NCBI RefSeq assembly: GCF_003334305.1
Contig: NZ_QOWS01000053.1
From: Escherichia coli
Lineage (GTDB): Bacteria > Pseudomonadota > Gammaproteobacteria > Enterobacterales > Enterobacteriaceae
Length of the DNA stretch: 3,207 nucleotides
Strand: one strand, 5' to 3'
Part shown: in pieces, positions 1 to 3,207 of the stretch
How the letters are laid out: each line of letters opens with the position of its first letter
How positions within the stretch are numbered: position 1 is the first letter of the stretch
Translations under genes and position numbers: made by a program
The notes under the pieces: generated by a model
Told to the model about the DNA's origin: nothing
Database searches by the model: none
The model's input: only the letters and a program-made list of their open reading frames with translations

Positions 1-800
1 GGAGCGATCATGCGAAACTCTGGCTGATCTGTGTAAGCGTCCAGTTTGTCTGCAAAGAAGACTATTTCTGGATCATAAAATTCCGGTTGATTCAGCGTCG
101 ACAGAGAGGCTTCTCCCTGCATAATCCGTTGATTAAACGCCAGCCACTGGGCGGTGGGATTAACATGCGAAGGTACTGATTCACGCAACCTTAATATTTC
201 GTCCGGTATATTCTGGCTGAACGTAGCATTTGGTATATATGCATAATTCATGTGGCACATATATTGTAGTGGCATATCTACAGAAGCCAGATTGGTTACG
301 GCCATCTTAATATCGAACAATGTAGAGGATTTGTGAAGGACCACTGTTGGCTGAGCCAGATAATGATGCCCGAACCCCATTACATACTCGTAACGCCCGG
401 TAAGGCGTAACATATCTCCCTCTAATTCCATCCATGCTTCATCCATCGCGGCACAGGCCATTTCACCGTGTAGCAGATGAGTATCTTCCGCAGATGGGCA
501 GCCATTAGCCAGCAAACCTGAATGAAAGGCAAAACAGCCATAGGTCTCTATCACCTCTGTCGCCGGTTTAGGCTGGCGAAACATATTGCACATGGTGAGA
601 CTGTGTCCATCAAATTGCGCATCCCAAATCATCTGCCCCATCCAGGGAAGAATAATTAAATGTCCACGACTGTTTGCAATTTTAAGCCCCTCGACACCAC
701 TGTCATAGCGAAAAGACGTGACAGTAAAATCACTATTTTCCAGCAAGATACGAGGTTTTTCGCCAAAAAGCGCCCGCCACAAATTAATACGCGTACTCAT
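1..800 (-). CDS. deoX: Third operon gene, 5' portion only (266 codons in window, 3' end beyond the left edge); deoX-like protein of unassigned biochemical function, possibly a sugar mutarotase-like enzyme
   Basis: Seen in sequence: translating the minus strand by hand from ATG 800..798 gives an open frame with no stop down to position 3. N-terminus MSTRINLWRALFGEKPRILLENSDFTVTSFRYDSGVEGLKIANSRGHLIILPWMGQMIWDAQFDGH...; the last residues in the window are ...LDAYTDQPEFRMIA. A strong Shine-Dalgarno GAGGAG (813..808) lies 7 nt upstream and overlaps the permease stop codon. This ORF is absent from the supplied ORF track, presumably because it has no stop in the window. The deoX name is from operon position only. 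Confidence 0.7.
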   Translation of the reverse strand, partial: MSTRINLWRALFGEKPRILLENSDFTVTSFRYDSGVEGLKIANSRGHLIILPWMGQMIWDAQFDGHSLTMCNMFRQPKPATEVIETYGCFAFHSGLLANGCPSAEDTHLLHGEMACAAMDEAWMELEGDMLRLTGRYEYVMGFGHHYLAQPTVVLHKSSTLFDIKMAVTNLASVDMPLQYMCHMNYAYIPNATFSQNIPDEILRLRESVPSHVNPTAQWLAFNQRIMQGEASLSTLNQPEFYDPEIVFFADKLDAYTDQPEFRMIA

Positions 801-807
801 AACGGTT

Positions 808-813
808 CTCCTC
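808..813 (-). promoter_or_regulatory. Ribosome-binding site for the third gene (GAGGAG), overlapping the deoP stop codon
   Basis: Seen in sequence: minus-strand 5'-TGAGGAGAACCGTT-ATG-3', where TGA (814..812) is the permease stop. Confidence 0.7.
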
Positions 814-2128
814 AGGACGCTGTGACTTCAGCCAGTGCGGTACGTACTTTGCTTTCACGCCAGAAGTAGACTCCGACATAGACAAAGCAGAGCATAGAAA
901 CCAGGAATGAAAGCTGAAGTGAGTGGAACATATCTGCAATATATCCCTGAATTGCCGGAACCACAGCGGCGCCGACAATAGCCATAACAATGACTGCTCC
1001 TGCCATTTCTGTATGTTCGTTATCAACTGTATCCAGTGTTCCTGCATAGATCGTCGCCCAGCAAGGGCCAAACAAAACACTTACCAGGACGGCGACATAG
1101 ACCGCGCTGAAACTTGGAGCCAGTGCAACATATGCCAGGAACAGCGCCCCTATAACGGAATAGAGAATCAATACTTTTTCCGGATTAAAACGCGTCATAA
1201 GGATGTTGGCTATAAACTTGCCAATAAAGAAGCAGGCAAAGCTATAGACCATGAAGTTTGAAGCATCACGTTCGTTGATATCGCCCAACTCCAGCGCCAG
1301 ACGGATGGTAAATGACCATACTGCGACCTGCATACCCACATAAAGGAATTGAGCCACAATACCACGACGAAAGCGCGAATTTTTAGCCAGATAGCGCAGC
1401 GTATCCATTGCTGACGGGCGTTTATGGTGACTTGTCTGTGCCACTTTACAGGTTGGGAAGCGGGTTAAAAGGAACAACACCATGACCACAACCAGAATCA
1501 TAATCATATACTTATACGGTTCAAGGGTGTTCTCTAACATCAGCACCTTAAAGTTGTGAATTTGCTCGGCGTTCATTCCGGACATCTGCTTCTCAAGGCT
1601 TTCCCCCTCGGAGAAAACCAGATATTTGCCCAATAAAATACCAGACGCAGCACCAATCGGATAAAAGGTCTGGCTGATATTGAGCCGCAATGTGGCATAG
1701 GCTTTTGGACCGATCATTGAACTGTATGTGTTCGCTGCAGTTTCAAGGAAACTCAGGCCAATCGCAATCGCAAAAATAGCTGCAAGGAACATAGTGTAGG
1801 TTGCCATATGCGAGGCAGGGAAAAAAAGTGTACAACCACCAATATACAGCGTCAGGCCAATTAAAATTGCCACCTTATAACTGGTCTTTTTAATCACAAG
1901 GGATGCTGGTATTGCAATTAAAAAATAACCTCCATAAAATGCGCTCTGCACCAATGCTGAAGCAAAGTTACTTAGCGAAAATACACTTTTGAATTGAGTG
2001 ATTAATATGTCATTTAATGCAGCTGCGCATCCCCATAGCGGGAATAAACACGATAACAAAATAAACTGGAACAAGGGAGTCTTATTCAGATATCCATCAG
2101 GCATCTGAATGATGTTTTTATCGTTCAT
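812..2128 (-). CDS. deoP: MFS transporter of the L-fucose permease (FucP) family; putative deoxyribose:H+ permease (438 aa)
   Basis: Seen in sequence: intact 438-aa ORF, stop TGA at 814..812. The protein is hydrophobic throughout with many predicted membrane-spanning segments. Its N-terminal region (LFPLWGCAAALNDILITQFKSVFSLSNFASALVQSAFYGGYF) aligns by eye with my recollection of E. coli FucP (LFFLWAVANNLNDILLPQFQQAFTLTNFQAGLIQSAFYFGYF). Shine-Dalgarno AAGGT (2139..2135) lies 6 nt upstream of the ATG at 2128. It sits 27 bp downstream of the kinase stop on the same strand. Confidence 0.85.
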   Translation of the reverse strand: MNDKNIIQMPDGYLNKTPLFQFILLSCLFPLWGCAAALNDILITQFKSVFSLSNFASALVQSAFYGGYFLIAIPASLVIKKTSYKVAILIGLTLYIGGCTLFFPASHMATYTMFLAAIFAIAIGLSFLETAANTYSSMIGPKAYATLRLNISQTFYPIGAASGILLGKYLVFSEGESLEKQMSGMNAEQIHNFKVLMLENTLEPYKYMIMILVVVMVLFLLTRFPTCKVAQTSHHKRPSAMDTLRYLAKNSRFRRGIVAQFLYVGMQVAVWSFTIRLALELGDINERDASNFMVYSFACFFIGKFIANILMTRFNPEKVLILYSVIGALFLAYVALAPSFSAVYVAVLVSVLFGPCWATIYAGTLDTVDNEHTEMAGAVIVMAIVGAAVVPAIQGYIADMFHSLQLSFLVSMLCFVYVGVYFWRESKVRTALAEVTAS

Positions 2129-2155: not shown

Positions 2156-3076
2156 TTATTCGTTTAAGGTTAAAAATTCATTAAATTGTTCAATACTCGG
2201 ATAAGATGATTGCGTACCTTTCCCTGTGACGCTGAAAGCGGCAAAGAGAGCGGCTTTTTTCAAAGCGGCTTCAACATCACCGCTTTGAACATAATAATGG
2301 GAAAAGCAACCAATAAATGCATCACCAGCGCCACTAGTATCAACAGCATTTACTTTGAATGCAGGAACATGGACTTCCTGATCGCGGGTCATCCATAATG
2401 CGCCTTTTTCGCTCATGGTAACAATAATATTGTTCAGCCCTTTATCAACTAACGAACGCGCAGCCAAACGAATATGATCATAAGTATCAACCGACATACC
2501 TGTTAATATTTCCAGTTCTGTTTCATTCGGGATAAAGAAATCACATTTGCAGGCATAAGACATATCTAACTCACGCAATGCCGGAGCCGGATTTAATAAC
2601 ACTTCAATACCATTTTTCTTACCAAACTCAATCGCGTGGTAAACTGTTTCCAGTTGAACTTCCAGTTGTAAAACGATCAATTTGCATTTTTTCAGATCTT
2701 CTGCAGCTCGATCGATATCTTCCGGGGAAAGAAATTTATTCGCTCCCTTAATTATTAATATACTATTGCTCGAGTTGGCATTAACAAAGATCGGTGCAAC
2801 ACCACTGCTGGTACAGGGGACCTTCTCAACATAAGTGGTATTAATTCCCCATGATTCAAGATTACGAATAGTATTATCCGCAAAAATATCATCACCTACT
2901 TTAGTCAGCATCAGGACTTTTGAATTCAATTTAGCCGCCGCCACCGCTTGATTAGCACCTTTCCCACCACATCCGATTTTGAAGGCAGGTGCTTCCAGAG
3001 TTTCTCCTTCTTTAGGCATCTGATTAGTGTAAGTAATGAGATCCACCATATTGGAACCAATAACTGCAATGTCCAT
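2156..3076 (-). CDS. deoK: Ribokinase/PfkB-family sugar kinase, most likely deoxyribokinase (306 aa from ATG at 3076; the ORF track's 315-aa version starts at 3103)
   Basis: Seen in sequence: intact ORF with stop TAA at 2158..2156. Ribokinase-family motifs are present in the translation: N-terminal MDIAVIGSNMVD, GGKGANQAVAAAKL, NPAP, NETE and the C-terminal DTSGAGDAF signature. The ATG at 3076 has a Shine-Dalgarno AAGAGGT (3089..3083) 7 nt upstream; the ATG at 3103 has none. Substrate (deoxyribose rather than ribose) is inferred only from operon context with a FucP-like permease. Confidence 0.85.
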   Translation of the reverse strand: MDIAVIGSNMVDLITYTNQMPKEGETLEAPAFKIGCGGKGANQAVAAAKLNSKVLMLTKVGDDIFADNTIRNLESWGINTTYVEKVPCTSSGVAPIFVNANSSNSILIIKGANKFLSPEDIDRAAEDLKKCKLIVLQLEVQLETVYHAIEFGKKNGIEVLLNPAPALRELDMSYACKCDFFIPNETELEILTGMSVDTYDHIRLAARSLVDKGLNNIIVTMSEKGALWMTRDQEVHVPAFKVNAVDTSGAGDAFIGCFSHYYVQSGDVEAALKKAALFAAFSVTGKGTQSSYPSIEQFNEFLTLNE

Positions 3077-3082
3077 TTCACT

Positions 3083-3089
3083 ACCTCTT
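3083..3089 (-). promoter_or_regulatory. Ribosome-binding site for the kinase gene (AAGAGGT on the minus strand)
   Basis: Seen in sequence: minus-strand 5'-TAAGAGGTAGTGAA-ATG-3', with GAGG 7 nt before the ATG at 3076. Confidence 0.7.
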
Positions 3090-3207
3090 ATAAACTTTCG
3101 CATAACAATGGTATTTAAATAACATTAGCATGTTACTTTTGCATCATTTGTGACTGAGATCGCGATTAGCACATCAACCCGATGTTTATTTAATAGACTT
3201 CCAGTCT
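3090..3207 (-). promoter_or_regulatory. 5' leader and promoter/operator region of the operon (partial; continues beyond the right edge)
   Basis: Seen in sequence: AT-rich non-coding stretch upstream of the first gene. A candidate extended -10 (TGcTAATGT, minus strand 3130..3122) is present, but I found no convincing -35 hexamer. Exact promoter elements cannot be fixed by eye. Confidence 0.4.
3120..3135. repeat. Perfect 6-bp inverted repeat TAACAT-tagc-ATGTTA; candidate repressor operator
   Basis: Seen in sequence: 3120..3125 TAACAT and 3130..3135 ATGTTA are exact reverse complements separated by 4 bp. The repeat overlaps the candidate -10 element. Confidence 0.35.

Follow-up and report, generated by a model that had tools for sequence, protein, structure and literature searches.

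The rbsK-annotated kinase gene of an Escherichia coli deoQKPX locus is very probably the deoxyribokinase gene deoK

The stretch of Escherichia coli DNA analysed here (3,207 nucleotides; hereafter the window) holds three close-packed genes, all on the minus strand: a sugar kinase gene, a gene for a permease of the FucP type and most of a mutarotase-like gene (Table 1). The stop codon of the kinase gene and the start of the permease gene are 27 nt apart, and 11 nt separate the permease stop from the start of the third gene, which begins at 800 and runs off the window start; the full gene is found at 5787-6800 in the wider locus L001. Just outside the window, a divergent gene for a DeoR-family regulator adjoins the kinase gene in the E. 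coli locus. The FucP-type permease and the DeoX-like gene that a preliminary description of the window had read beside the kinase are thus confirmed, with the regulator beyond the window as a further neighbour. In E. coli ATCC 43896 the order is an aldose-1-epimerase-family gene (337 aa), 'fucP', 'rbsK' and the divergent DeoR-family regulator, and this arrangement is that of deoQKPX.

Table 1. Features of the window, with positions counted from its first nucleotide
Feature	Position	Strand	Description
deoX, mutarotase-like	1..800	minus	first 266 of 337 codons in the window; Pfam DUF4432, PGAP 'aldose 1-epimerase family'
deoP, FucP-type MFS permease	812..2128	minus	438 aa; TIGR00885 324.5 bits (cut-off 280.4); fucP in RefSeq
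deoK, predicted deoxyribokinase	2156..3076	minus	306 aa, PfkB/ribokinase family; stop 2156-2158, ATG 3074-3076; based on ORF, TIGR02152, DeoK identity and fold
DTSGAGDAFIGCF, PfkB signature 2	2303..2341	minus	residues 246-258; catalytic Asp252 = RbsK Asp255; Cys257 clade-specific
PNETE (NXXE) motif	2516..2530	minus	residues 183-187; Asn184 = RbsK Asn187, ATP/Mg site
CGGKGANQ, PfkB signature 1, sugar-binding GG-K-N loop	2948..2971	minus	residues 36-43; Cys36 clade-specific (RbsK Phe40)
Tyr16 codon	3029..3031	minus	= RbsK Asn20, site of N20Y in K-12 evolved on 2-deoxyribose
GSNMVD strand	3041..3058	minus	residues 7-12; Asp12 = RbsK Asp16 (sugar O2/O3), Met10 = RbsK Asn14
Shine-Dalgarno AAGAGG of deoK	3084..3089	minus	read from sequence; 7 nt upstream of ATG
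Inverted repeat TAACAT-N4-ATGTTA	3120..3135		44-59 nt upstream of deoK ATG; candidate DeoQ operator

Mechanically, the deoK open reading frame extends to an ATG at 3103 (315 aa); the RefSeq start is at 3076. The upstream in-frame ATG (3101-3103) would add nine residues, MRKFIRGSE. It is probably unused, as it lacks a Shine-Dalgarno sequence of its own and homologues stop short of the extension, the 18 aligned members of the DeoK clade (65-96% identical) matching the window kinase from residue 1. Further upstream, the inverted repeat is perfect (TAACAT-TAGC-ATGTTA), and of the 44 loci of Enterobacteriaceae type (L003-L045, L056), 36 have TAACAT-N4-ATGTTA at -59/-60; it was not found in more distant loci. 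Judged from the sequence, this repeat may be the operator bound by DeoQ. A related repeat, ATGTTA-N6-TAACAT, adjoins the deoQ start in L001 (about 9345-9362). A sigma-70 scan returned 11 promoter-like sites against 7.6 +/- 2.8 expected, and none of them lies in the region upstream of deoK (3077-3207).

The kinase carries both signatures of the PfkB/ribokinase superfamily (PF00294), the N-terminal GG and the C-terminal DTxGAGD with the catalytic Asp, and PF00294 matches are precomputed for homologues. Its predicted fold is that of the ribokinases: the AlphaFold2 model (pLDDT 85.2, pTM 0.86, the lid hairpins 20-33 and 96-105 being of low confidence) matches the human, E. coli, V. cholerae and Brucella ribokinase crystal structures with TM-scores of 0.84-0.87 (E. 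coli 0.85). The best-scoring solved relatives are ribokinases as well, with the bacterial DeoK scoring higher against the human enzyme (216 bits, 38% identity) than against E. coli RbsK (170 bits, 36%), and no deoxyribokinase was seen among the PDB sequence or fold matches listed. The ribokinase motifs are as unambiguous as they had been called at first sight, and they equally fail to split a deoxyribokinase from a ribokinase. The ribokinase equivalog model TIGR02152 gives DeoK 369.2 bits (cut-off 299.65) and E. coli RbsK 360.8, and it accepts every clade member tested. A model that scores DeoK above RbsK does not exclude deoxyribokinases, and a match to it is no proof that ribose is the sugar used physiologically; its acceptance of DeoK also explains the RefSeq name rbsK for deoK. 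On the model for enterobacterial RbsK (PRK11142 / NF008353), DeoK reaches 251.6 bits and stays under the cut-off of 341, compared to 553.1 bits for K-12 RbsK.

Full-length comparison separates the two enzymes far more clearly. The window kinase is identical to S. Typhi DeoK at 292 of 306 positions (~95%), both proteins being 306 aa long, and to K-12 RbsK at 109 of 306 (36%). The S. Typhi and E. coli DeoK reference sequences were machine-read from Appendix Fig S11 of PMC6452873 and contain OCR errors; to these belong, in all probability, the only two differences from the DeoK of E. coli AL862/55989/CFT073, as the Salmonella row is off at the position of M56N too, which marks this difference as a reading error, and T303I is probably another. 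Strains AL862, 55989 and CFT073 all grow on 2-deoxyribose (PMC6452873). A full-length protein of S. enterica subsp. salamae (P0124), a 'Deoxyribokinase' in UniRef, is identical to the window kinase at 293 of 306 positions. The S. Typhi DeoK itself was reportedly characterised by Tourneux et al. in 2000. The DeoK clade is monophyletic in a neighbour-joining (NJ) tree that carries no support values, and in a phmmer search of the full database the clade representative scores 459 bits, with the next cluster following at 391 bits.

With about 95% identity to a characterised DeoK, 36% to RbsK and a deo-type gene context, the window gene can be taken with high confidence to be deoK, the deoxyribokinase gene of a deoQKPX locus. 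The preliminary description had reached the same assignment but rested the substrate on context; this holds insofar as the motifs alone are insufficient, whereas the sequence does decide once a characterised DeoK serves as the reference. The ranking it had named as counter-evidence, a higher identity to RbsK than to characterised DeoK, is the reverse of the one found. As such, deoK is an already known and ordinary gene, of which the window holds another allele. It is highly improbable that the gene encodes instead a second true ribokinase, a paralogue of RbsK for ribose imported by the MFS permease. The TIGR02152 score over the cut-off and the RefSeq name rbsK/ribokinase would agree with such an enzyme, but the near-identity to a characterised deoxyribokinase and the low PRK11142 score do not, and rbsK is already present in nearly all E. 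coli genomes.

The gene neighbourhoods point in the same direction. At least 80 genome loci with kinases 65-97% identical to DeoK were compared, those listed spanning Enterobacterales, Aeromonas, Pasteurellaceae, Bacillaceae, Paenibacillus and Shimazuella; S. enterica LT2 is not among the 80 loci listed and is represented by subsp. diarizonae (L022) and the salamae protein as stand-ins. Homologues of DeoP and DeoX adjoin the kinase in 70 of the 80 loci listed, in the order K-P-X in Proteobacteria and P-X-K in Bacillota. In none of the 80 does rbsA, rbsB or rbsC lie beside the kinase, and rbsD appears in them only as one weak distal match. The window kinase, too, has deoP, deoX and deoQ as neighbours and not the rbsDACBK(R) operon with its ABC ribose transporter. 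A DeoC-like aldolase adjoins the kinase in Providencia, Proteus, Moellerella, Aeromonas, Pasteurellaceae and several Bacillota; that of Aeromonas is 76% identical to E. coli DeoC. This linkage to DeoP, DeoX and DeoC in the absence of rbsACB is strong independent support for a role in deoxyribose use, and it argues against a second ribokinase.

The neighbourhoods also vary between lineages. Between the Bacillota (L067-L082) and the Proteobacteria (L003-L066), the kinases share 65-70%, the permeases 59-73% and the DeoX proteins 53-62% identity; that the three genes travel together in a rearranged order suggests transfer of the cassette between phyla. In Providencia stuartii and Proteus spp. (L054, L058-L066), a DeoQ-like regulator and a DeoC-like aldolase lie beside the kinase, and no DeoP or DeoX homologue was found within 8 kb, so that another transporter must serve uptake where DeoP is missing. 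Fictibacillus fluitans (L075, about 14660-16900) has a second DeoP-like permease (62%) at a distance of 6 kb from its deoPXK cassette, with a weak RbsD-like match before this permease; the locus ends too early for this cluster to be read.

A permease of the FucP type is by itself not a sufficient marker of deoxyribose use, as DeoP homologues (57-64%) also occur beside kinases linked to the ribose pyranase RbsD. Two of these kinases are among the nearest outgroups of the clade in the NJ tree. At the P0140 locus (kinase 52% identical), the genes follow each other as RbsD, LacI-type regulator, kinase and DeoP homologue (64%), and at that of P0136 (61-63% identical, with Asn at position 10) as RbsD, kinase, DeoP homologue (57%) and DeoX homologue (57%). 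The context argument of the preliminary description therefore needs to be shifted from the permease, which is not diagnostic alone, to the linkage with DeoX and DeoC, which is the stronger signal. The same relatives are what a second ribokinase could still appeal to, because P0136, P0140 and P0141, the nearest outside the clade, all adjoin RbsD-type genes and two of them have DeoP-like permeases. A metagenomic hybrid locus (L088, 586-4042) combines ribose-type and deoxyribose-type accessory genes, which are arranged, in this order, as an rbsD-like pyranase gene, a kinase gene (62%, with Asn for Met10) and the genes for a DeoP and a DeoX homologue.

To compare the sugar sites, 83 proteins of the clade (identity of 60% or more), 8 of intermediate distance and 126 distant outgroup proteins were aligned with the E. 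coli, human and S. aureus ribokinases. In E. coli RbsK the hydrogen-bonding residues are Asn14, Asp16, Gly42, Lys43, Asn46, Glu143 and Asp255, and Asp27 of human ribokinase binds the 2- and 3-hydroxyls of the sugar. DeoK residues D12, G38, K39, N42, E139 and D252, as well as A94, I96 and I106 in the lid, do not vary among the 83 clade members, and the positions equivalent to RbsK Asp16, Gly42, Lys43, Asn46, Glu143, Asp255, Ala98, Ile100 and Ile110 vary little or not at all in the outgroup. This leaves a single altered first-shell residue, RbsK Asn14, which is Met10 in DeoK. The expectation of the preliminary description that a residue contacting the sugar 2-OH would discriminate the two enzymes is not cleanly borne out, as Asp12, the ligand of O2 and O3, is kept and the Met that replaces Asn14 is shared by human ribokinase and an RbsD-linked relative.

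No single residue can discriminate the clade. Met is present at position 10 in 81 of 83 clade members, in 17 of 126 outgroup proteins and in human ribokinase, and Tyr16 in 83 of 83 clade members and 43 of 126 outgroup proteins. Neither is diagnostic alone, since P0141 (51% identical) has both and is encoded directly downstream of an RbsD/FucU pyranase gene. A correspondence of Asn or Met at position 10 with RbsD or DeoX context is likewise ruled out by P0136 (Asn; RbsD and DeoX), P0076 and P0140 (Met; RbsD). P0076, which has Asn at this position, is flanked by aldehyde and alcohol dehydrogenase genes, an arrangement that fits the disposal of acetaldehyde.

The combination N9-M10-Y16-C36-S102-C257, by contrast, occurs in 81 of 83 clade members and in none of the 126 outgroup proteins; of the 118 close homologues that the first search gave, 108 carry it. 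Among the proteins sampled, this six-position signature is confined to the DeoK clade. Asn9, Cys36 and Cys257 are clade-specific in DeoK, as are E28, A29, P30, A66 and S102, which replace glycines or fall in the poorly modelled lid hairpins. Sugar contacts of the clade-specific positions are putative, given that the PDB matches listed hold no deoxyribokinase.

Two of the positions have been linked to deoxyribose by experimental evolution. K-12 evolved on 2-deoxyribose acquired the N20Y mutation in RbsK, and among reconstructed RbsK N20Y strains that grew, 15 of 16 colonies had an extra N14D or N14S (PMC6452873). That DeoK has Tyr at the position of RbsK N20 was already pointed out by the authors (PMC6452873, main text and Appendix Fig S11). 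On the basis of this correspondence, Met10 and Tyr16 may be residues that tune the active site. It seems rather unlikely that these two lid and first-shell residues are what mainly sets the deoxyribose preference of the clade. If they were, exchanging just these two residues would switch a ribokinase to the preference of a deoxyribokinase and vice versa, and Met10 and Tyr16 together with the other four signature positions would amount to a sequence-only rule for correcting the rbsK label on deoK.

In pathogenic and probiotic E. coli, competitiveness in the gut and the urinary tract has been linked to deoxyribose use. [quoted passage not shown] In S. Typhimurium, growth on deoxyribose is lost upon deletion of deoK. 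In these published genetics, which contradict a second ribokinase, carriage of the operon tracks deoxyribose growth in E. coli. According to a 2019 description, DeoK together with the aldolase DeoC had been the one non-oxidative route for deoxyribose known until then. A preference of DeoK for deoxyribose over ribose is reported by secondary citation. Both the catalysis and the growth phenotype ascribed to the window gene are taken from literature on the same or a 95%-identical protein.

In the proposed pathway, deoxyribose would be imported by DeoP, a FucP-type MFS symporter, and its ring or anomeric forms would probably be interconverted by the mutarotase-like DeoX. DeoK would then use ATP and the PfkB catalytic residue Asp252 to phosphorylate O5, yielding deoxyribose 5-phosphate, which the core aldolase DeoC would cleave to glyceraldehyde 3-phosphate and acetaldehyde. 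The operon would be under the control of DeoQ, the gene of which is divergent and lies just past the window. As the active site is nearly unchanged from that of ribokinase, activity on ribose is expected to be kept, as it is in Salmonella DeoK. The role in deoxyribose use would then come from modest tuning of the active site (Met10, Tyr16 and other clade-specific positions) in conjunction with dedicated transport and regulation.

An alternative is that DeoK is a generalist pentose kinase without meaningful preference in its active site, the specificity being provided only by induction through DeoQ and transport through DeoP; the name deoxyribokinase would then fit the operon and not the enzyme. 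This overlaps with the assignment as a deoxyribokinase and would be a refinement of it. The first-shell ligands shared with RbsK apart from Asn14 to Met10, with the O2/O3-binding Asp12 kept, are compatible with such an enzyme. The same is true of reports that Salmonella DeoK phosphorylates ribose and can sustain growth on it, that over-expressed RbsK can sustain growth on deoxyribose, and that ribose and deoxyribose are both good substrates of E. coli ribokinase. As DeoK takes ribose and over-expressed RbsK serves deoxyribose, specificity in this family is relative and not absolute. The absence of any preference is nevertheless doubtful: the six signature positions are fixed in the clade and as a set absent outside it, and selection on deoxyribose altered RbsK at Asn14 and Asn20, both of which differ in DeoK. 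In addition, the purified S. Typhimurium enzyme has a Km of 5.3 mM for ribose and a kcat/Km about 100-fold lower than that of RbsK, which suggests that ribose is not the substrate for which it is optimised. A deoxyribokinase that keeps ribose activity remains the preferred reading.

The locus belongs to the accessory genome of E. coli. Of 5426 complete E. coli genomes, 1621 (~30%) match the whole window at 95-100% identity, nearly always once per chromosome, and many of the matches are at 99.8%. rbsK is found in 5399 of the 5426 (99.5%), which shows that deoK supplements rbsK and does not replace it. In ATCC 43896 the deo locus is flanked by IS200/IS605 and ISEc52 pseudogenes and by truncated genes; in L001 the regions 3712-5308 and 10166-13781 hold frameshifted IS200/IS605 and ISEc52 transposase genes as well as truncated pseudogenes (ilvN-like, uxaA-like, DUF3927). 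Such insertion sequence pseudogenes and truncated genes around the locus are hallmarks of an accessory island. They are consistent with an old island insertion. The deoQKPX locus of E. coli was probably acquired by horizontal transfer.

Genetic and biochemical descriptions of deoK and deoQKPX already exist for Salmonella and for E. coli strains, pathogenic as well as probiotic; the scientific weight of these results is small and the practical point is one of annotation. RefSeq names the kinase rbsK and the permease fucP in all 15 matches listed, and these names reflect over-reach of the underlying models. The permease label, 'fucP: L-fucose:H+ symporter permease', follows from a TIGR00885 score over the cut-off; on the FucP-specific model PRK10133, DeoP reaches 285 bits against a cut-off of 427. 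The label is therefore probably an equivalog over-call like that of the kinase. For deoX, no NCBIfam model matched, and in Pfam only DUF4432 was found, in two weak stretches, Aldose_epim not being matched despite the PGAP name; from its sequence, DeoX may be a mutarotase or pyranase for deoxyribose. Deoxyribose catabolism would escape metabolic reconstructions built on the names rbsK and fucP, at a locus carried by about 30% of complete E. coli genomes. The DeoK clade appears cleanly separable, and a dedicated model should be easy to build given its monophyly in the unsupported NJ tree, the six-position signature and the drop in phmmer score. By-products of the analysis are a clade-wide check of the published observation on Tyr16 and the six-position signature, by which the clade stands apart among the proteins sampled here.

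Among known systems, the closest is DeoK of Salmonella enterica (Typhi/Typhimurium), which is of the same length and about 95% identical throughout, with the same K-P-X order and divergent deoQ. The S. Typhi protein differs by about a dozen substitutions, none of them at sugar- or ATP-binding positions, and in S. enterica subsp. diarizonae (L022) the kinase is 95%, DeoP 96%, DeoX 83% and DeoQ 83% identical to the E. coli locus. Unlike Salmonella deoK, the E. coli gene lies on an accessory island with IS remnants. There is no substantive difference from the DeoK of E. coli AL862, 55989, CFT073 and Nissle 1917 (PAI II-AL862 and related islands). With E. coli RbsK (PDB 1RKD), DeoK has in common the fold, the catalytic Asp, the GG-K-N loop, Glu143, the NXXE motif and the lid hydrophobics, and each enzyme phosphorylates both ribose and deoxyribose to some degree. 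DeoK differs from RbsK in the changes of Asn14 to Met10 and Asn20 to Tyr16 and in four more clade-specific positions, it stays under the PRK11142 cut-off, and its genomic partners are an MFS permease and the mutarotase-like DeoX, whereas those of RbsK are RbsDACB. Human ribokinase RBKS (PDB 2FV7, 6WK0) is the top solved relative of DeoK (38% identical in the structural alignment) and shares with it the Met at the position equivalent to Asn14. In contrast to DeoK, this eukaryotic housekeeping ribokinase has Leu at the equivalent of position 16 and is devoid of Cys36, Ser102 and Cys257.
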